Shown here piece by piece: positions 31,893 through 49,898 of a stretch of 64,000 nt of DNA (position 1 is its first letter; every line of letters begins with the position of its first letter). This DNA is from a virus (lineage: Duplodnaviria > Caudoviricetes), in IMG/VR virus record IMGVR_UViG_2834101283_000005, positions 7,010 to 71,009 of that record; one strand, written 5' to 3'. The position numbers were made by a program, and so were the translations under genes. A model generated the notes under the pieces. It was not told the origin of the DNA and did not search any database. It saw nothing but the letters and a program-made list of their open reading frames with translations.

Positions 31893-32760
31893 GTAATTTT
31901 TTAGGCGGCGACCCGACAACGAGAGCGCTGTAATCTCTACGGGGACCGGCGCGATGGGCGGCGACCTATTACGCCTCGATGCTAAATGCAGTTAGATGTA
32001 TCTTTTTGAACACTGTGAAGACCGTTGACAGCGTGCAGTGACTAGCCCATATTCGGGGGCTTTTTACGGATACGTAAAATTGACCAACCGTTTCGTGTAG
32101 CAGCGATGCTGCACGAGTAGGAGCCGACCAAAGTTCCGAAATAAGGCTATGGTGCTGCGCCATAAGGTACTGTAATGCAGGGCTTTCGGTGGGATGCGTA
32201 ATTTGTCGTGAGTGAAAAGCTGCGGCAGCCTGCGACGGCGATAGTGGGGGCTATCGAGCCTAGCAGGAATCCCAACCAAGCATCTTAGCTGTGACGCCTT
32301 GGAAACAGGGCTATAACATTGGAAGCTTGTACAAGTAGCTCAAACGGCTGATTCAAAAAAGACATTTGTTATTTAATACTACATTAAAATCATATGGCGA
32401 ATGTCGAGTGAACGTTGCCGGTAACAACCCGGCCATGCATTTTCCGTTCTAAAACGGCTTGGAGATAGTCATGGGGTAGCTCCCCTCGGCTCGCCCTCCT
32501 TGGCATGTAGCAAAACAGCTTTATGGCGGAGTAAGCAGAAATGCTCAATAAAGGTGCATCTGAGTGCATTTAGCACAATATATAGTGAATGTCCTAAGGG
32601 ACATGTTCAAAAAGGGGCACGGCTCCTTGGGTATAACAGCTTTGTGCTGACATACATATGATTACCGGGTTCCTTTTTCAGGTGCGGTCTTGGACAAACC
32701 GCACCTTGGGACCGTTATGTTGCGAGGCTTAGGGCGAGCCTTCAATCGCTCTATTTTCAT
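31893..32760 (+). ncRNA. Large structured ncRNA candidate (ROOL/GOLLD-like)
   Basis: About 870 nt without a credible ORF, ahead of tRNAs. Perfect 11-bp pair TGCTAAATGCA (31980-31990)/TGCATTTAGCA (32565-32575) closes 596 nt; many internal hairpins. Confidence 0.6.
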
Positions 32761-32836
32761 ACTCCGATAGCTCAATCGGTAGAGCAACTGGCTGTTAACC
32801 AGTGGGTTACAGGTTCGAGACCTGTTCGGGGTGCCA
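32761..32836 (+). tRNA. tRNA-Asn(GTT)
   Basis: ACUCCGA/UCGGGGU acceptor stem, CU-GUU-AA loop, GGTTCGAG T-arm, CCA. Confidence 0.92.
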
Positions 32837-32839
32837 TAT

Positions 32840-32916
32840 GCCGGTGTAGCTCAGTTGGCTAGAGCAATAATCTTGTAAATTAAAGGTCGAAGGTTCGAGT
32901 CCTTCCATCGGCTCCA
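32840..32916 (+). tRNA. tRNA-Thr(TGT)
   Basis: GCCGGUG/CAUCGGC acceptor stem, CU-UGU-AA loop, CCA; one mismatch in the anticodon stem. Confidence 0.88.
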
Positions 32917-33024
32917 CGATTGAAAAATCGTCTAAGCGCACGGTTTTTGGAGGGGTTAGGTTACGACCAGACCCCAATTTTTTATCATCACAGATAATTG
33001 GCAGGGTACGTTCCTGCCTCGCAT

Positions 33025-33112
33025 GGGCGGTTGGCCGAGCGGTTGAAGGCACTTGTCTTGAAAACAAGCAGGCTGAAAAGTCTCGTAGGTTCGAATCCTG
33101 CACCGTCCGCCA
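33025..33112 (+). tRNA. tRNA-Ser(TGA)
   Basis: GGGCGGU/ACCGUCC acceptor stem, CU-UGA-AA loop, long variable arm, CCA. Confidence 0.92.
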
Positions 33113-42493: not shown

Positions 42494-44605
42494 ATGGCAG
42501 ACGAATTAAATAATGAACGCATAGGGTTTTCCGTCGATGTGACGACAGGGAAATCTACAGAAAATATTGATGCGGTCGTTAAACAGATTGACTCTTTAAA
42601 AGACCGAATTACTGATTTAAAGAAGCAGCGTAAAGGTGCAGATGAGGTTGCTCTTGACGACTTAAATAAGAGCATCCGAGAAGCACAACGGGAGTTGAAT
42701 AAGCTCAATTCGGTCTACACTTCATGGATTCAAAAAGCAACCGACATCAACACGAAACCTATCGGCGACGTAAAGAAACAGATTCAGGAATTGCAGAGAG
42801 TGTTGGAGTCGTGGAGTGGCAACCCGAAGGATTTTCAAAAGCAGATTCTTGACCGCTTCCTGATTCCCAACTCAGCCATCGAACAAGCCCGGTTGTATCG
42901 GGAAGCTATTCGGCAGATTGAAGGCCTGGCTAATTCGGGAGCTATCAGCACGCAGAGAGCAGCCCTAGCTACAAATCGATTTAGTGCATCTTTAAAAGAC
43001 GCAGAACGTAGAGCTAGGGCATTAAAAGATGCGGTCGATGGCATTCCGAGTTCGACTAAGCGGTTAACCGATAGAACCGTTCAGCAGGTCTTCTCTGGTT
43101 GGGATGGAAAGACCGATTTCCTTCGTAATTTCACGCCCGCTGAAAGCTACTCTAAAGAGCTTTCACAGCTTAAGAAGATGGTCGATGAACTCAAAAGGGG
43201 TTTCGGAGATAGCACAGACATTGGCGTTCAGAACCGCTTAAAGAAAGCCATCGATGAGATTACGGTTGCCTATCGAGAAGCCAAAAAGGCCAAAGATGAG
43301 CTGAACGGGCGGATTACTGGCAAGGCCGAAGAAGAAGCCAAAAAGGCACAGGCCAAAGCGCAGCAAGAATTAAACAAGGAAATCCGAGAACAAGCCAAAG
43401 CGTCCAAAGAGGCAGAGCAGGCGACAACGCAAAGTGTGCGGTCGGCAGTACAACAGTATAGACGCCTTCAAGAGCAGCTTGAAGAAGTACAAGCCAAGAT
43501 TAAGATGAATTACATCGACAACTATAAAACGAACCGTAACGCTTATGGCGAGAATTTAGCTCCTTTGCTTACTCAATATAAACAGCTTTCTAAGCAAATT
43601 AAGGATGCAGAACGCAACATGGATTTGTTGGCACTCAAGGCGGACTTTTTCGGGACCACTTGGGATAAAATTACTCATCGTATGGGTTGGGTATTGACAA
43701 GTTTTGGAGCAGCAGGACTTTTCGGTGGCGCAAACGCATATTTCAACACATTACGCGATGTTGAAAAAGAAATGGCTCAATTTTCACAGGTCATGAGCCA
43801 CGGTGCGCCTGTCGTCGAAGGAGCAGAAGAACTTTCCCGGTCGGTTGGAGCTGCTTCCATTTCCGTAAACGCTTTTGGTAAATCCATCCATGACTTGTCT
43901 ATTGAGGATTTGCAAAAAGGGATGCGCGAAGGGGTTGTTGGTTCCAAATTATTTAAAGATGAACTTGACGCTATGCAGCAATCCTTGATAAACCTTGCGA
44001 TTAAATATGGCGAAGCTCATAAAGACGTTGCCGAGTCCGCTACATTGTGGGGCCGGATGTACAAAGATAATAACATCGTCCTGACCATGACTGACGCTGC
44101 CATGAAATTGGCCGTAGCGGATAGTTTTAGCGTTGTTCAGGCGAATAAAAATCTCGAATCGTCTATTGCTCAGTGGGGATTTGAGATTAAAAACAACAAC
44201 GATGCAATGGCCGTTTCGTCTAAGATTTGTGACTCATGGACTGCGATTGCGCACAACATGGCCGTATCCGCACAAGACTTGTCGGCTGCTAATCAGAGAG
44301 CTGCTTCTTCGATGCACGCTGCAGGTATCGAATTTGACGTAGGGCAAGCCATCCTCGCCACAATGCTTCGTAATACGCAGCAGGCAGGCGGCGAAATCGG
44401 TAACGCTATGAAGTCTATTATCGGTTCTATTCACAGCAAAAAAGCTGTTGAAGAAATCGAAAAAATGGGCGTTGCGGTATACGAGTTCGACGAAAATGGT
44501 TCTAAGCATTTCCGTAATGTAGGCCAAGTGCTTGTCGACTTAATGATTAAAACCCAAGGCACAGAAAAGAACCTTGAAAACCTGTTCATGAAAATTGCTG
44601 GGGGT
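42494..44605 (+). CDS. Tape measure protein, exon 1
   Basis: TP901-type TMP core (SLINLAIKYG...EIGNAMKSI); similarity ends at KIAGG. Confidence 0.9.
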
Positions 44606-44895
44606 AAACCATCATACTTGCCCCAACCGCAGGTAACTGCGGCGTAAAAAACGGTTTTATATCGGTCAAAGTCCCAGAAGTGGGGGAGACCGAGGGAAAC
44701 TGCAATTATTCCAATTAGAACACAAACATATGTTTGTATAAAAAGAAAAAATGTGTTATAATATATTTAGTGATATAAAAAAAGAGCCTACAGCTCAGAT
44801 TCGGCATGTTTAAAAAAATAGGGTATAAGCGAAGCGTAACGTAAACGGCCCTGAGTATCAGCGAAAACCTTCGTTGGGTTGCAACGCTGCGCATG

Positions 44896-44982
44896 TTAGC
44901 ACAGCTTAATGACCCAAATCAGGTTGGAGACAGAATCAACCAACCGAGACAGGGCCAAAATGAGAGATACAATATCACTCAT
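44896..44982 (-). CDS. 28-aa hydrophobic peptide (type I toxin-like) inside intron loop L6
   Basis: MSDIVSLILALSRLVDSVSNLIWVIKLC; SD AGGGAGG; overlapped by a plus-strand transcript from TTGTAT-N17-TATAAT (44734-44762). Confidence 0.65.
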   Translation of the reverse strand: MSDIVSLILALSRLVDSVSNLIWVIKLC

Positions 44983-45072
44983 AAGACAACCTCCCTAGGA
45001 CTAATCACCAATAAAAAACATGCCCCTTGGCTGTGGCTCTCGTATATTACTATAACACAATACGCGCAAAAG

Positions 45073-45100
45073 AAAAAGACACCCCAAAAGGTGTCTTTTT
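45073..45100. terminator. Bidirectional terminator inside the intron
   Basis: AAAAAGACACC-ccaaaa-GGTGTCTTTTT. Confidence 0.8.
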
Positions 45101-45200
45101 GATTGGAATAAATGCAGACCCCGAACGACTGACATAACCGCCCCTTGCAGGACACAAGGGTGAATATACAGTCTAACCATAGGGATAACTGAAAAGAAGC

Positions 45201-45563
45201 CTATGATTTATTTTGTTGTTGCTGTTCGTATGCTGCTTGTAGAATAAAGGGGAAGAAAAAGACTATTGCTACAATGACCGCAATAATAATTCCGCCAAAT
45301 GACCAAGATGGGCTAACCCCCAACCATTTAAAGAATTCTATTACAAGTAAACACCAAATTATCCAACCTATTATTTGAACAAGCCAACCAAGGAAGAAAA
45401 ATTGCAGAATCCCGTAAAATATAGGAATCATGACCCTAGCTAAGCACAGAAAAACAATGGTCATAATAAAGCCCATCGCCCCAACTTTTGCGGCGTAGGC
45501 AAATCCGAGGATTAACAAAATAATTCCGATTAATATGGTTCCGCACCCTATTTTATCGTTCAT
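45201..45563 (-). CDS. Multi-pass membrane protein encoded antisense within the intron 3' region
   Basis: 120 aa, 3-4 TM segments; own TGGTATAAT promoter and SD AAGGAAG. Confidence 0.8.
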   Translation of the reverse strand: MNDKIGCGTILIGIILLILGFAYAAKVGAMGFIMTIVFLCLARVMIPIFYGILQFFFLGWLVQIIGWIIWCLLVIEFFKWLGVSPSWSFGGIIIAVIVAIVFFFPFILQAAYEQQQQNKS

Positions 45564-45641
45564 AGTATCACTTCCTTTATAACAATATTATACCACGAAC
45601 ATACATACGTAACAAAAATAATTACAACAGAATAATATAAG

Positions 45642-48600
45642 AAGTATCAATGGAACAAAGCCGGAGCTATGCTTAACTACAGCGATTTTCTTCATGCGTT
45701 GCGGTTAAGCACTGAATCTTACGGCTTTACTCAAGAACAGGTAGCAATGCAAATGGATACGATAGCAAGAAAAGCTGAACAATTTCAGCAACAGCTTGTA
45801 TCACTATCCACTGGTGCAGGCAATTTATCTTCTGCCTTTAAATTAATTATTGACGGCGCAAGGAAAATAGTTGAAATAGCAGACCAATTAAGCACATCCC
45901 AATTAATCACTTTTGTTGTAAGCGGTGTTTTGTTTGCTAAAACAACTGCTATTGTGGGTGCGTTGAAAAGTATAGTTAGTATTTTAGGGACTATGCGTGC
46001 TTTGTTGGTCAGTATAGGGACTAGAAATTTCCTTAGTAATTTAAGTGCCACAGCCACTTTGCCGGGTATATTAAAAATTGTTGGTGCTTTGGGAATGTTA
46101 ATCACCCTTTATGACGTATTGAGTGGAAAAGAAGCAGATGCTCGTGCTATCCGTGAAGGCCAAGCGGAAGAAATTACATCCCAAATTGAACTTGAAGAAG
46201 AATTATTAAACCGTAAAGAACAGTCTCTCGAATCTATCCGCGCATATGCGGAAGGATACCGTGCAATTTCCGAACGCTTGAAAGAAGCCAACCTTTCAGA
46301 AGAAGAACGGAATAAGTTGCTTAAAGACCAGCAAAGCACCCATGAGGCGTTGGTTAATATTATTGGCGAAAAAGACGCGGTTAATGTAGAGGCTCACGCA
46401 AACGAGTCTGCTTATTTAGACGAAATTATCAGTAAGCATAAAGAGCAAATCGCCACAGACCGAAGTGGATTGCAGGAAAAAGCTCAAGGTTTAAAAACGA
46501 TTGCGGATGCCGAACTTGAATACACTAAACAAGTTGCTGAAAACCTCGACATCCAAAAACAGGGTATTGGTGGCGTTATTGAGGAATTAATCAGGTTGGG
46601 CCGTTGGTGGGACGCCATTATGTTGAAATTACAGGATTTCAACCGCTCCTTCGATTCGGCAATGCTTAAAAACCACACTCGGCGGTTACAGTCTTTGCAG
46701 AACATGAAAAAGCAAGGGCTTACTAATGAATGGGGGCTTTTGGGCGAACTTGTTGGTACTCAAAGCATAGACGAAGCGATTGCCGAAGAACAAGAGTTAG
46801 TCAATAAATATAGTAGCGCAGTAGACGAAGATACTAAATCCATCAATGGGGCAGCTAATCGCACCAAAGGGGAAGAAGTTACTAAAGGATTGCAAAATAT
46901 ACAGCGCTACAATGCCAATATGAACAGCATACTTGGTAATGGCTTTAACCAGACCTCAAAGGGTGGTTCGGAAATTGATGAATCTGGTGGCGGCTCTGGC
47001 GGTTCTGGCAAGAAAGGCAAAAAGCGAGTTTTTGACATGGAAGGCAACGAAATCCGCATCCCGAACGCTTCCAATTACGTAACCGAAGATGGCGTAGACC
47101 GCAATGTAACCCAAGATACAGAACTCAAGCTCCGCATTATGGACGAAGCCTTTTATCGCAAATTTGGACAGCACTTGCTTGTATCTTCCATGAAGCGGAA
47201 TCGTGGCGATGGCTCCAAACATGACGATGGGTTAGCATTCGACCTTGTTGGAGACATCCTTGAAAATAACCCCGGCGCACGTCAATGGTTGTCGGATTAT
47301 GGCTCTTGGATTGGCTTGACCGCCTTGGACGAATATTTGCCAGAGAATGCGCATTATGCTCGTGGCGGTGGCAATCTTCATTTTTCCAACAACGGTGCAT
47401 CCATTTATGACATCCTTGGTTCAGCAGCTAAGACGAATGCCGACTTTAAGGACAATTCTGTTCAAAGGCAGCTTTATGATGCCCTGAAAGCAGAAAACCT
47501 TTCGGACAAACAGGCATGGGCCGCAATGGCTGCTATTGGTGGAGAATCCAGTTTTGACCCCGGTGCCATCCAAGAAGGGATGAGTTTTGAAGACCCCAAG
47601 GCTGGTATTGGTTTGATGCAATGGACAGCCGACCGCAAACAGGCTTACCTTGACTTTGTGGCTCAGAGGGCTGCAATGGGGGGCAGTTCAGATTGGCGTG
47701 ATTTGGCAAACCAGTTGGCCTTTATGCGGTGGGAAATGAATAACACCGAAGCAGGCTCTTGGCAAGAATATTTAAATGGCGTAACCAATGACACATCTGC
47801 CGAAGGCGACGTAAGACTGTTCACGTCGAAGGTAGAACGTGCGGGCATCCCCAATATTGCCAACCGTATGCAGTATTACGGCGACGTTTCCAGCCATTAC
47901 GTAAACGGTATGTCCCTTTACGACTCTGACCCGTCTAAGGTAAAACAACTCACGCCTGAACAGAGAGCCGAAAAAGAAGCGAAACGGTTGCAGCAATATT
48001 ACAATACGCTCAACAAAGCCGCCGATACGCTCGAAAAAGTTGTTGGAGAAAAGTATAAGTACGCTATGGATGTTATCAATGAAGACCAGCAGTTGTTTGG
48101 TCAGAACATGGAAAACACTGGCAAGCAGCTCGACACCTACCAGGCGAAACTTGTGGACGACGTAAATATTACGGAGCAGTATTCCAAGGTGCTTGAAAAA
48201 GTTGTCAACAACTTGAGCGATGCTGACTCACAGCGGCTTTTCCATATGGGTAAAGACGACTTTTTGAAACTTGAACTGGAAGAGCAGCAAAAGCTTATTG
48301 CCGGGATTGATGCAGAATCAGCCCTCTATAAACCTATTCTGGCAACTTTGAATGAGATTGTCAAGGTTAAGCAAAAGATTCGTGAGTCGGATGAGCAATA
48401 TCATAAAGACCAAATGGAATGGGTTAAGCTGTATCAGAACCGCACAAAGCTTCGGTATGACAAGCCAATCCAAAGCGAAAACGACGACATCCGGGAATGG
48501 GAAATTACGCATAGCAATGAAAGATATGATGCGTTTTATCGTAATATTTTCGAACAGCAACATCTTGAAGAAATCGCAAGACTTGCCAAGGAAAAATACG

Positions 48601-49898
48601 ACGAAATGATGCAGCCTATCTTGGATGCGGAAGGGAACCCTGTGTATGACCGAGCTGGCAATCAGTTGTTCGGTGGTTCTCCCGAAGAAATCGAAAAGCA
48701 GAAACAGGCATGGCTTGAAGCGGATGCAGCAGCCAAAAAGTATGCGGCGACGCTCAAGAACGACGTAAACCAGCAGTTTACCGAGTTTACTAAGAGTGTA
48801 CTAATCCAAGGAGAAAGCTTGCGGGATAAACTCAAAAACCTTTGGAAGCAGCTTGGCGAAGATGCTTTAACGTTACTTTTGAGCGGTGGCAAAGAAGGGA
48901 CAAATTCGCTTCTTGGAAACATCCTGCGTCAATTCGTAAATCGTCATCGTGACCAGAAAGACCAATTTTTAGATGGCCCATATGGCTATAAAATGCCATA
49001 TGACACAACCTTTACAACGTATGCGACTGGTCCCATGTCGGCATATATGAGCAACGGCACCTATCGGCCTAGTATGGCTTCTTGGGGACAAGCAATCGGA
49101 GCAACCGAGCCAGTTGTAGGGGTTGACCCGTTGACAGGTAGCCACTTCTCGACCATCAATACAGCCACATTGGCGAATCCGACACCCGTGTACGTAACTA
49201 ACGCAGCTAACATTGCAGGTGGAATCGGGAACGCAGTTAACTCACTCACTGATGGGCTACCTGCAGGCACGGCTATCCCTGATATGAAATATTCTTTTGG
49301 CGTCGACGGAAGCGTAACCAATATGGCTAAAACTTTGCAAGGTATAGCCGGTTTTACGACTAAATACAACTGGGGGATGCCAACCTCCGGTGGCGGTTGG
49401 GGAGATTTAGCTCTTGGCAATAAGCTTGGTATTTTTGCTAATACACTTCCTTGGCTGTTCCGTTTATTTGGCCATCATGCGAGCGGTGGCAAAGTAGATG
49501 AAGAAGAAATAGCAACCCTTGGCGAAAATGATAAGACCGAATACGTCATCCCTACGGAGCAGAACCGCCCTCGTGGTGTGGCTCTTTGGAAGAAAGCTGG
49601 GGAAGATTTGGGTGTACTCTCAAAAGGTTCCCCGGTAGTCCCGAACTTCAAGAACAAGGAACTTGCCACGAGGGGTGTCATGTCAGTACAAGTCAAACAG
49701 CAGGCAGTCTACATGGAGCAGATGAAGCGGCAGAATCAGACGTTGCTTAACATCCTTTCGGCGATGGCTAATAACCAGGCCAACAACGGCGGTGGCGGAA
49801 CAGCCGTTATGCAGCCGGTTGTCGTTAAGCAGTCTATGGACATGAACGAATTCACTCGGATGTACCAGAAAGGGAAAAGCTACAACTACTTGAAATAA
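45642..49898 (+). CDS. Tape measure protein, exon 2 (peptidase M15-like and phage-lysozyme-like domains); spliced product about 2122 aa
   Basis: In frame with ORF 45669-49898; SKHDDGLAFDL...LHFS; AIGGESSFDP...GIGLMQWT...QLAFMRWE. Confidence 0.88.
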   Translation, partial: KYQWNKAGAMLNYSDFLHALRLSTESYGFTQEQVAMQMDTIARKAEQFQQQLVSLSTGAGNLSSAFKLIIDGARKIVEIADQLSTSQLITFVVSGVLFAKTTAIVGALKSIVSILGTMRALLVSIGTRNFLSNLSATATLPGILKIVGALGMLITLYDVLSGKEADARAIREGQAEEITSQIELEEELLNRKEQSLESIRAYAEGYRAISERLKEANLSEEERNKLLKDQQSTHEALVNIIGEKDAVNVEAHANESAYLDEIISKHKEQIATDRSGLQEKAQGLKTIADAELEYTKQVAENLDIQKQGIGGVIEELIRLGRWWDAIMLKLQDFNRSFDSAMLKNHTRRLQSLQNMKKQGLTNEWGLLGELVGTQSIDEAIAEEQELVNKYSSAVDEDTKSINGAANRTKGEEVTKGLQNIQRYNANMNSILGNGFNQTSKGGSEIDESGGGSGGSGKKGKKRVFDMEGNEIRIPNASNYVTEDGVDRNVTQDTELKLRIMDEAFYRKFGQHLLVSSMKRNRGDGSKHDDGLAFDLVGDILENNPGARQWLSDYGSWIGLTALDEYLPENAHYARGGGNLHFSNNGASIYDILGSAAKTNADFKDNSVQRQLYDALKAENLSDKQAWAAMAAIGGESSFDPGAIQEGMSFEDPKAGIGLMQWTADRKQAYLDFVAQRAAMGGSSDWRDLANQLAFMRWEMNNTEAGSWQEYLNGVTNDTSAEGDVRLFTSKVERAGIPNIANRMQYYGDVSSHYVNGMSLYDSDPSKVKQLTPEQRAEKEAKRLQQYYNTLNKAADTLEKVVGEKYKYAMDVINEDQQLFGQNMENTGKQLDTYQAKLVDDVNITEQYSKVLEKVVNNLSDADSQRLFHMGKDDFLKLELEEQQKLIAGIDAESALYKPILATLNEIVKVKQKIRESDEQYHKDQMEWVKLYQNRTKLRYDKPIQSENDDIREWEITHSNERYDAFYRNIFEQQHLEEIARLAKEKYDEMMQPILDAEGNPVYDRAGNQLFGGSPEEIEKQKQAWLEADAAAKKYAATLKNDVNQQFTEFTKSVLIQGESLRDKLKNLWKQLGEDALTLLLSGGKEGTNSLLGNILRQFVNRHRDQKDQFLDGPYGYKMPYDTTFTTYATGPMSAYMSNGTYRPSMASWGQAIGATEPVVGVDPLTGSHFSTINTATLANPTPVYVTNAANIAGGIGNAVNSLTDGLPAGTAIPDMKYSFGVDGSVTNMAKTLQGIAGFTTKYNWGMPTSGGGWGDLALGNKLGIFANTLPWLFRLFGHHASGGKVDEEEIATLGENDKTEYVIPTEQNRPRGVALWKKAGEDLGVLSKGSPVVPNFKNKELATRGVMSVQVKQQAVYMEQMKRQNQTLLNILSAMANNQANNGGGGTAVMQPVVVKQSMDMNEFTRMYQKGKSYNYLK

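Follow-up and report, generated by a model that had tools for sequence, protein, structure and literature searches.

Known introns and cargo genes in phage tail operons

The classic group I introns of bacteriophages, such as those of T4 td, nrdB and nrdD/sunY and those of SPO1 and Twort, carry homing endonucleases, and phage introns of this group are viewed as vehicles for these enzymes, while morons are thought to require intergenic space. The intron analysed here, which lies in the tape measure gene of a prophage, follows the classic logic in the way its guide sequence serves P1 and P10, in its terminal G, in the early in-frame stop that precedes the core and in the presence of open reading frames in peripheral loops. 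It departs from the classic examples in what these loops hold: where the latter carry homing endonuclease genes on the same strand, we find antisense genes for membrane proteins and RNA cassettes, and no endonuclease.

Tape measure genes from prophages of the Bacillus cereus group are known to harbour the group I introns TMP-IVS1, IVS2 and IVS3 (Tourasse and Kolsto, 2008; PMC2504315). In the part of that article used here, they resemble the present intron in being self-splicing group I elements, in occupying a highly conserved stretch of a prophage tape measure gene and, for some of them, in lacking a complete homing endonuclease, these last being thought to be passively transmitted with the phage (PMC2504315). 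The same part of the article places them in subgroups IA1 and IA2, with hairpins P7.1 and P7.2, whereas J7/3 of the present intron is only ACAU, without any hairpin; it mentions neither independent antisense genes nor toxin-like loop cassettes (PMC2504315). The present family belongs to phages of gut Negativicutes and has no detectable sequence in common with any GenBank phage.

Two further systems bear comparison. In the IStrons CdISt1 and BcISt1 a group I intron is fused to an IS200/IS605 element: the 5' end is an endonuclease-less ribozyme, which renders a large 3' passenger, itself no endonuclease, harmless to the interrupted gene, with a 3' splice site far from the core (PMC4227781), as would also hold here. 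The IStron ribozyme is of subgroup IA2, and its cargo is a TnpA/TnpB transposon through which the whole element reaches many sites (PMC4227781), whereas the present intron occupies one fixed site, lacks a transposase and holds, in two loops, mostly antisense cargo of many unrelated kinds; identity with an IStron was rejected in view of the absence of transposase domains, a J7/3 of 4 nt, a single site and a single copy. Gene 15 of HK97 is a moron located next to the tape measure gene, and its product, the small inner-membrane protein gp15, prevents the entry of phages dependent on their tail region (PMC3594210). Phage morons lie as small genes within the late tail operon, each has a promoter and a terminator of its own, and they are expressed while the phage is a prophage (PMC3594210); the cargo described below would share these traits. 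The known ones are intergenic, whereas the present cargo is intragenic, which the intron would make tolerable. That group I introns occur in prophage tape measure genes is already known; the novelty lies in moron-like cargo that is interchangeable within such an intron. The whole is, in our opinion, best and very probably correctly explained by a group I intron with predicted splicing, a vertically transmitted core and two slots for moron-like cargo.

A tape measure gene split at a conserved site

The window, that is the whole stretch of 64,000 nucleotides that was analysed, comes from a phage record that is a provirus with a completeness rating of 100%, and the provirus is that of a temperate phage of gut Negativicutes, probably of the Megasphaera family. 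Exon 1 of its essential tail tape measure gene (42494..44605, plus strand, 704 codons) ends in KIAGG and has the PF10145 core region at residues 501-694; exon 2 (45642..49898, plus strand, 1418 codons) begins with KYQWNKAG and encodes a PF18013 tail lysozyme domain. Joining 44605 to 45642, which removes 1036 nt, yields a frame of 2122 amino acids without a single internal stop and with KIAGG directly followed by KYQWNKAG, just as the first-pass annotation had predicted. When this joined protein is aligned with 12 uninterrupted metagenomic homologues, it runs free of gaps over the invariant motif SGG/KWQWNK (the slash marks the joint), and the tape measure protein of Alicyclobacillus phage KKP_3916, also uninterrupted, reads IAGG/KYQ at this place; alignment with uninterrupted homologues thus shows the exact junction.

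The frame that reads through from exon 1 meets a stop (TAA 44645-47) 3' of P2 and 5' of P3. At least 13 further distinct phage or metagenome loci, in each of which both boundaries were located, have the same element at this very codon, with inserts of 385-1892 nt, and more than 100 clusters of N-terminal tape measure halves stop 9-14 codons after GG, one of them after 32. An intein, ribosomal bypass and a group II intron were all rejected on account of stops in all frames, a length of 1036 nt, and the lack of a reverse transcriptase gene and of domain V/VI features. As far as comparison of sequences can establish it, a tape measure gene split by a self-splicing-type group I intron without a homing endonuclease is confirmed.

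Architecture of the ribozyme

The intron (44606..45641, plus strand, 1036 nt) extends from the first base after U44605 through the terminal G45641, and the pairings proposed at the outset for P1, P10, P2, P3, P4, P7, P8 and P9, together with the terminal G, were all recovered. P1 and the guide occupy 44601..44624 (plus strand): GGGGT at 44601-05 pairs with GCCCC at 44620-24 over five of five positions, with the wobble U44605-G44620 at the 5' splice site. The guide itself spans 44614-24, its 5' half (44614-19, ATACTT) being the P10 strand that pairs in all six positions with AAGTAT (45642-47) at the start of exon 2. The P2 hairpin (44627..44642, plus strand) follows, with six pairs (44627-32/44637-42) closed by the GNRA loop GUAA. 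The 5' half of the core (44652..44699, plus strand) contains the 5' strand of P3, J3/4, P4, P5 and the 5' strand of P6, with P3 as 44652-56/45136-40 (5/5), P4 as 44662-67/44688-93 (6/6), P5 as 44672-75/44682-85 and P6 as GGG 44694-96 with CCC 45119-21. The helix 44700-15/45102-17, taken at first for P6, does exist, and 15 of the 16 positions of its 5' strand (44700..44715, plus strand) pair with 45102-45117; it is, however, P6a.

The 3' half of the core (45102..45206, plus strand) runs from the 3' strand of P6a to P9. J6/7 is CGA, J7/3 is the four-nucleotide ACAU mentioned above and J8/7 is 45161-68. P7 (45125-31/45169-74) joins ACGACUG to CAGUCU, with C45126 bulged and a G45127-C45173 pair, P8 (element 45142-60) pairs 45142-47 with 45155-60 and P9 pairs 45178-83 with 45200-05, each over six of six positions. 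The P3-P9 core, with its P4-P6 stack and P3-P8/P7 pseudoknot, is thus present in canonical order, and CGAACGACUGACAU and GAAUAUACAGUC resemble the consensus of the R and S elements. The intron could be assigned to no subgroup and lacks the P7.1 and P7.2 hairpins of IA1 and IA2, and a search by eye for a P9.0 pairing before the terminal G gave none that was consistent.

Beyond P9, a strand at 45208..45219 (plus strand) pairs with 45624-45635 to form P9.1, 12 bp including one G-U, which compares with shuffled sequences at z -3.0, none of 200 shuffles pairing as well. The passenger of about 435 nt that the first-pass annotation had placed after P9 is indeed there; it is not a free tail, though, as P9.1 encloses it. 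The compact ribozyme from P1 to P9 amounts to about 215 nt. Stripped of its two cargo loops, the core has a folding energy of -97.4 kcal/mol, whereas shuffled sequences reach -57.4 +/- 5.1 (z -7.9); apart from the pseudoknotted P3, all helices reappear in the minimum-energy fold.

Cargo in two peripheral loops

The first cargo fills loop L6a (44716..45101, 386 nt) and forms a convergent two-promoter cassette. On the plus strand, a promoter-like site read from the sequence (44734..44762) consists of TTGTAT, a 17-nt spacer and TGtTATAAT, hence an extended -10 with a weak -35; it is conserved in the related intron L006, and the promoter scan missed it because its -35 matches at only 3 of 6 positions. 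An antisense RNA of about 330 nt would start from this site and end at a terminator at 45078-45100. On the minus strand, a 28-amino-acid hydrophobic peptide (P0244, 44896..44982) is preceded by the ribosome-binding site GGGAGG, 8 nt upstream of its ATG; its transcript would depend on an extended -10, TGTTATAGT (45049..45057, minus strand), identical in L006, and would end at an intrinsic terminator found by the scan, GAGCTGTAGGCTC followed by T7 (44784..44796, minus strand). In L006 the amino-acid sequence of the peptide is conserved; the start codon there is TTG, and 5 of 12 changed codons are synonymous, conservative changes being present too. A two-way terminator hairpin (45070..45100), in which GACACC 45078-83 faces GGTGTC 90-95 between flanking A and T runs, adjoins the 3' strand of P6a, and a similar hairpin lies in the same place in L004, L006, L013 and L015.

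The fold of the peptide mRNA shows long-range 5'-3' pairing (z -4.7). In type I toxin-antitoxin pairs the toxin is a small hydrophobic peptide, neutralised by an antisense RNA that overlaps its mRNA. The L6a cassette, with its hydrophobic 28-amino-acid frame and ribosome-binding site, its convergent promoters and the 5'-3' pairing of its mRNA, resembles such a pair in these sequence traits, although it matches no family. Four RNA-type runs of two studies, three of the four being RNA only by a guess of library type, yielded contigs of 188-214 nt with an identity of 99% or more; these contigs cover only 44804-45031, and their strand and ends are uncertain. In relatives, L6a may be empty, may hold just a terminator hairpin or may house a cassette for a small RNA or a small ORF. 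The present cassette was not found elsewhere, either in IMG/VR by exact pattern or in 39 genomes of the Megasphaera-MAG family.

The second cargo, in the P9.1 loop, is a gene for a protein of 120 amino acids (P0002, 45201..45563, minus strand), hydrophobic almost throughout and with about four membrane spans, whose stop codon overlaps the 3' strand of P9. Its promoter (45587..45615, minus strand), found by the scan, consists of TTGTTA, a 17-nt spacer and TATAAT with TG upstream, 10 of 12 positions matching. P9.1-like closing stems are seen in L006, L007, L008 and L016, with weaker support in L013, L010 and L011, and across the family this loop houses genes for small membrane proteins of six or more unrelated kinds, nearly always in antisense orientation.

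That the intron carries no homing endonuclease, as first proposed, is borne out, since no scanned cargo open reading frame matches an endonuclease family: none did in Pfam or PHROGs for the window and eight related introns, and NCBIfam (five proteins) and PADLOC likewise returned no match for cargo proteins. Pfam, PHROGs, NCBIfam, PADLOC and the protein atlas suggested no cargo function, the only matches being to phrog_8436 and weak ones to zinc ribbons. One may then ask whether the intron is real while its cargo is not independently expressed, consisting of leftovers of a lost endonuclease and of the chance promoters and open reading frames of AT-rich DNA. Loss and decay of the endonuclease are common in group I introns, as the part of the B. 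cereus-group study used here indicates (PMC2504315), the scan finds six promoter-like sites against 3.7 expected by chance, and no cargo belongs to a known family; yet the P9.1 frames, of 78-137 amino acids, are hydrophobic throughout, have ribosome-binding sites and fall into families that are 47-92% identical across introns, one of which matches phrog_8436 (of unknown function) at E 5e-21. The score of the cargo 2 promoter with its upstream TG, the RNA-library contigs on the L6a cassette alone and the pattern of codon changes in the peptide gene speak in the same direction, so that we regard the explanation as distinctly unlikely.

The claim that two independently promoted passengers are present thus finds support in the minus-strand promoter at 45615..45587, the terminator at 44796..44784 and the contigs over 44804-45031. 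Of the traits that mark a moron, a promoter and a terminator and variable presence among relatives are seen, and expression while the late genes are silent is predicted; the contigs cover the L6a unit only. It had further been proposed that the ribozyme makes the gene a neutral landing pad. Varied or absent cargo in both loops of relatives agrees with a landing pad, but "neutral" may be too strong a word, as the plus-strand T run at 45078-45100 and the strong convergent promoter could lower expression of the tape measure gene.

Conservation of the splicing elements among relatives

Comparison of relatives, as suggested in the first-pass annotation, turned up intron-less alleles as well as the same core with other cargo or with none. 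The nature of the element as a group I intron is supported by the junction fixed by homologues, the splice-site pairings of 14 introns and covariation in the core. Exon 1 ends in GGGGGT and the guide contains GCCCC in all 14 distinct introns, P1 being invariant in 12 aligned relatives as well. P10, of 6-10 bp, is present in 14 of 14 and tracks the exon-2 variants AAGTAT, AAATGG, AAGTGG and AAATTC, and the terminal base is G in every one of them, though the sequence that precedes it is unrelated. Three intron-less alleles carry GGCGGT in place of GGGGGT, and P1 would therefore be broken in them; it is only among intron-bearing alleles that the Gly codon is always GGG.

In the core alignment (53 pairs), 97.9% of cells pair, as against 27-40% when partners are slid, and in 11 pairs both partners have changed, as opposed to 0-2 in the slid controls. 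Compensatory changes are seen in P2, P3, P6a, P8 and P9; in P2 both bases differ in 4 of 7 pairs, and the loop is GUAA, GUGA or GCGA. P7 is invariant in all members of the family, its bulged C included. A point against is that P3 of the related intron L004 has two U-U mismatches. RNAalifold, run on 12 relatives, predicts P1, P2, P4, P5, P6, P6a, P7, P8 and P9 unaided. Model R1, built without the window, matches it at 44596-44762 (112 bits, the 5' half of the core) and 45060-45207 (46 bits, E 9e-11, the 3' half) and nowhere else. The nrdD gene is a classic host of group I introns, and R1 also detects, within one such gene, a related core with a proper U-G in P1. Two further matches to the core pattern, L017 and L024, were rejected as GC-rich chance matches without intron features.

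Rfam RF00028 gave no match in the window, in the phage's own genome or in the 385-nt relative L007, either at the gathering score or at E up to 10; as the nrdD relative was also missed, this silence may reflect low sensitivity of the model. Within the insert, Rfam matched terminator look-alikes only. Searches of the region and of the core against GenBank phages by blastn gave nothing meaningful, tblastn of exon 2 against the same phages gave nothing, and a single-protein scan of IMG/VR gave no relatives.

Were the ribozyme dead, the insert would simply split the tape measure gene into two, with products of 717 and about 1409 amino acids that assemble without a covalent bond. Both halves are open frames, ATG 45669 has GGAG upstream, the Rfam group I model is silent, and the four RNA runs showed neither exon cover nor joints nor spliced RNA over 44000-46300, because the runs found contain no exon sequence. 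Against this stands selection visible on pairings relevant only to splicing, namely P10 and the terminal G in 14 of 14 introns, the GGG codon and the compensatory changes of the core; moreover the Met at 45669 is unconserved, homologues reading AGAM, MGAL or LAAS, and the nonsense tails that close the N-terminal halves are in fact translated P1 and P2 sequence. We consider a dead ribozyme highly improbable. Still harder to credit is a mobile element at the DNA level, a MITE or IS-like cassette with inverted repeats that inactivated the gene of a decaying prophage or is excised as DNA before lytic growth: inverted repeats do flank both cargo units (the extended P6a arms and the P9.1 arms) and the record is a provirus, but the scanned cargo frames contain no transposase or recombinase, there is no target-site duplication at 44605/45642, the insert occurs once, at a single site, in its own genome, the record is rated 100% complete, the insertion is kept over lineages whose exons differ by 25-50%, and conservation resides in the structured core, not at the cargo ends.

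The group I intron appears to be inherited vertically, since core and flanking exons have diverged to a similar extent.

A proposed mechanism for splicing and cargo expression

In the late transcript, the guide at 44614-24 would pair with the end of exon 1, forming P1 with the U-G at 44605, and with the start of exon 2, forming P10. The P3-P9 core would bind guanosine at the invariant G45127-C45173 pair of P7, and two transesterifications would join 44605 to 45642, giving an mRNA for one protein of 2122 amino acids with the predicted junction GCTGGGGGT followed by AAGTATCAA. The two peripheral loops would be slots for independent transcription units, their closing stems insulating the fold of the ribozyme. 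The L6a unit would produce the minus-strand mRNA of the 28-amino-acid peptide and an overlapping plus-strand RNA, while the cargo 2 transcript would traverse the ribozyme core in reverse and stop at the L6a hairpin terminator. Like morons, both units would be active while the prophage is silent.

By analogy with gp15 of HK97, we may imagine the intron as a domesticated platform that ties prophage-expressed membrane proteins, as candidate superinfection-exclusion factors against tape-measure-mediated DNA entry, to the phage's own tape measure allele. Since the antisense transcript of cargo 2 would cross P9, P8, P7 and P3 on its way to the L6a terminator, it could also act as a brake on splicing, hence on tail assembly, until lytic override. 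Both ideas belong to a speculation that we hold to be rather unlikely.

Consequences for gut phages

At a single codon of an essential virion gene, this family retains the same ribozyme, whose two stem-closed loops have repeatedly been filled with unrelated promoter-bearing units: genes for membrane proteins, small RNAs and a cassette for a toxin-like peptide. The ribozyme would thus be a general insulator that lets cargo sit within coding sequence, a natural counterpart of the IStron in which host-directed cargo replaces the transposon. This class of intron, missed by Rfam's group I model, supplies a compact ribozyme tolerant of large inserts at two positions, and it would explain many of the "split" tape measure annotations in gut viromes.

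A tape measure gene split at a single codon

The window carries a phage tail module in which the tape measure gene is interrupted. Its 5′ open reading frame (42494-44647, plus strand, 717 codons) encodes, in residues 501-694, a tape measure core domain of the TP901 type (PF10145), and about 1 kb of non-colinear sequence separates it from a 3′ open frame (45642-49898, plus strand) encoding the tail lysozyme domain PF18013. In Alicyclobacillus phage KKP_3916, whose 2609-residue tape measure protein is uninterrupted, the alignment to exon 1 extends through ...IAGG, after which the protein goes on with KYQY, and 12 uninterrupted metagenomic homologs (1607-2236 residues) align without gaps to the joined frame across an invariant SGG/KWQWNK. 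Joining 44605 to 45642 yields 2122 residues without an internal stop, so that, given this colinearity, the insert is exactly 44606-45641; the predicted product agrees with the first-pass annotation, which had proposed that splicing restores an in-frame protein of about 2122 residues. Of the handful of cut positions that are equivalent, 44605/45642 is the only one with U preceding the 5′ cut and G preceding the 3′ cut.

The same intron recurs in other loci. A protein search returned more than 100 clusters of N-terminal halves (671-885 residues), nearly all ending 9-14 codons past the same GG, one of them 32 codons past it, with tails (e.g. K..LPQPQVIEV) that are P1 and P2 sequence in translation. 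Ten related loci were fetched from these clusters and further ones by a core DNA pattern. Both boundaries were located in 13 further distinct introns, 385 to 1892 nt long, all at the same codon as the window's. In all 14 introns, the window's counted, exon 1 ends in GGGGGT and the guide sequence has GCCCC, the terminal intron base is G, and the 5′ part of the guide forms 6-10 contiguous P10 pairs with exon 2. P10 tracks the exon-2 start (AAGTAT/ATACTT, AAATGGC/GCCATTT, AAGTGGC/GCCACTT, AAATTCC/GGAATTT). Intron-less alleles, which had been suggested as a check, do exist: the insertion site is GGC GGT in all three (L014, L034, L001) and GGG GGT in every intron-bearing allele. As GGCGGT is expected to place a C-C mismatch in P1, the glycine codon stays GGG just in those alleles that carry the intron, a synonymous choice that tracks intron presence.

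Fold and class of the ribozyme

All the pairings written out in the first-pass annotation are present in the window. Two points of its description had to be amended: the 16-bp helix that it named P6 does pair, but it is P6a, closing the first cargo, the true P6 being 3 bp only (GGG 44694-96 with CCC 45119-21); and the second cargo does lie after P9, not as a free tail but enclosed in the loop of P9.1, a 12-bp stem (45208-19 with 45624-35) that stands only 6 nt from the 3′ splice site. Reducing both cargo loops to tetraloops leaves a 277-nt core with a folding energy of -97.4 kcal/mol (shuffles, -57.4 +/- 5.1), and its minimum-energy structure includes P1, P2, P4, P5, P6, P6a, P7, P8, P9 and P9.1; P3 is absent because it makes a pseudoknot with P7.

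In an alignment of 12 relatives' cores from which the window was left out, 97.9% of cells pair under the proposed structure and 27-40% in controls with slid partners; pairs changed on both sides number 11 and 0-2, respectively. The structure outscores all 500 shuffles on four of five measures, and RNAalifold returns the same helices unprompted. Covariation is located in P2, P3, P6a, P8 and P9; P4, P5, P6 and P7, invariant or nearly so in the 12 cores, speak neither for nor against the fold. In the window and the related locus L006, P6 has GGG/CCC in place of AGG/CCU. A covariance model built from the 12 cores gives just two matches in the 64 kb of the window, 112 bits for 44596-44762 and 46 bits for 45060-45207, which are the core halves flanking the L6a cargo.

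Two local differences between cores may be recorded here. The P8 hairpin (45142-45160) and its counterpart in L006 are exact reverse complements, with loop CAGGACA in the window and TGTCCTG in L006 and the stem kept; judging from the two sequences, the whole hairpin is inverted. In locus L004 (3279-3534), the same two positions of P3 differ in each of its strands (CGGUU to CUUUU, AACCG to AAUUG), so that two U-U mismatches stand where compensated pairs would be expected; this may reflect a weakened intron or an assembly artefact.

The Rfam group I model RF00028 matches neither the window, nor the genome, nor the compact 385-nt member, and thus does not itself assign the intron to group I. The class is compact, without P7.1 and P7.2 and with ACAU only as J7/3, and we read this silence as limited sensitivity of the model for such introns. 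The covariance model built from the 12 cores also detects a weaker relative (36 bits), which RF00028 likewise misses, in a bacterium from the same family as the uncultured Megasphaera genome discussed below (L036:1501-1701; G003:C1:1994164-1994364). That core splits nrdD after ...NTEFVP, has a proper 6-bp P1 with U-G, and is followed by a 76-residue Cys/His-rich frame truncated by an IS3-type transposase gene; the same nrdD gene also bears a LAGLIDADG intein. nrdD is among the genes classically interrupted by group I introns, and the core type is hence present in such a gene too. We are highly confident that the insert 44606-45641 is a real group I intron, predicted to be catalytic.

The cargo frames scanned in the window and eight related introns match no LAGLIDADG, GIY-YIG, HNH or other nuclease or transposase family, in keeping with the view that the intron goes without a homing endonuclease. 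Identity between the window's core and the cores of relatives is 73-88%, and for the adjacent 300 nt it is 65-77% (exon 1) and 50-63% (exon 2); intron and host gene have therefore diverged together. Such figures argue for vertical descent, with no recent sweep into the tape measure gene.

Two loops with variable cargo

The L6a loop is a plain loop of 4-7 nt in L007 through L012 and a hairpin only, with a U run on the minus strand, in L004 and L013. It holds a 122-residue frame (plus strand) in L005; in L015, an uncultured Megasphaera contig, it holds a candidate small RNA of about 90 nt (intron 100-260), preceded by the promoter TTGCTA-17-TGgTATAAT and followed by a terminator that is strong (AGAGGTCAGGC...GCCTAGCCTCTTTTT). 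The window (44716-45101) and L006 share a 386-nt cassette which, in the window, has an extended -10 promoter-like site on the plus strand (44734-62), an extended -10 on the minus strand (45057..45049), a minus-strand frame for a 28-residue hydrophobic peptide (44982..44896; ribosome-binding site GGGAGG), a minus-strand terminator found by scan (44796..44784) and a two-way hairpin terminator (45078-45100). The peptide is kept in L006 with a TTG start, five of the 12 changed codons being synonymous. In its predicted fold (z -4.7) the minus-strand RNA pairs its 5′ end with its 3′ end, as do several type I toxin mRNAs. Four runs from two studies, with RNA libraries on record for one and by guess for three, each contain a single free-standing contig (188-214 nt) that matches the window at 99% identity or more; these cover 44804-45031 and nothing else of the 2.3 kb compared, and carry no readable strand or ends. 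Contigs of this unit alone would fit transcription while late genes are silent.

In the window, the P9.1 loop holds an antisense gene (45563..45201, minus strand) for a 120-residue protein, hydrophobic throughout, with the promoter TTGTTA-17-TATAAT and an upstream TG (10/12). Promoter and terminator predictions support the claim of two independently promoted passengers. The corresponding loop encodes a distant homolog of 137 residues in L005, a pair of paralogous membrane proteins from a different family in L006, a zinc-ribbon membrane protein (phrog_8436) in L008 through L012, yet other membrane proteins in each of L004, L013 and L015, and a 43-residue membrane peptide on the plus strand, read by eye, in L007. 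Antisense P9.1 transcripts would necessarily traverse P9, P7, P8 and P3 backwards, and the hairpin adjoining the 3′ strand of P6a would be oriented to halt them; in L013 this hairpin terminates on the minus strand only, and in L004 mainly on that strand.

Host and neighbouring features

The source record is a 71-kb IMG/VR provirus rated complete, and the only named genome with the intron is an uncultured Megasphaera metagenome-assembled genome from the human gut. In four metagenome contigs (L021, L027, L028, L029) a CRISPR array is fused directly to the intron: its last 'spacer' starts at P3 (GGTTTTATATCGG...) and runs on into phage sequence, and in L021 another spacer matches tape measure exon 2. 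These contigs look like assembly chimeras through a spacer against the ribozyme core. The repeat GTTTCCGTCCCCTTGCGGGGATTATGGTTCTTATC is present in 7 of 39 genomes of the Megasphaera genome's family, a distribution pointing to the host. With spacers matching from P3 onward, host CRISPR systems therefore appear to target conserved ribozyme sequence.

The window also has a full-length ROOL RNA (RF03087, 238 bits, E 8e-53; 31987-32565, plus strand), with three tRNA genes directly after it (32761-33109, plus strand). In Bacillus phage Nate (L002:2875-3864), a Xer-family tyrosine recombinase is annotated just upstream of the tape measure gene, within the tail module.

The intron as a probable cargo carrier

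For the Bacillus cereus group, prophage tape measure genes have been described that contain group I introns, a subset of which lacks a complete endonuclease (PMC2504315), so that the intron as such is not new. IStrons are group I ribozymes bearing a large non-endonuclease passenger near their 3′ end (PMC4227781); their passenger, however, is a transposon and their ribozyme of IA2 type, unlike the tape measure intron, which has no transposase match and is without P7.1 and P7.2. Gene 15 of HK97 is a moron, a promoter-bearing membrane-protein gene beside the tape measure gene (PMC3594210), whereas the window's membrane-protein cargo sits inside an intron of that gene. Full-text literature searches returned no report of phage group I introns housing interchangeable moron-type units. 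The proposal that the intron acts as a cargo carrier, which included a comparison of the same intron with different cargo, is upheld by the relatives: both loops vary around a shared core, with differing or no cargo in L6a and differing genes in P9.1. We can therefore understand the two insulated loops of this intron, as read from sequence comparison, as slots for variable, independently promoted cargo, whose expression is predicted.
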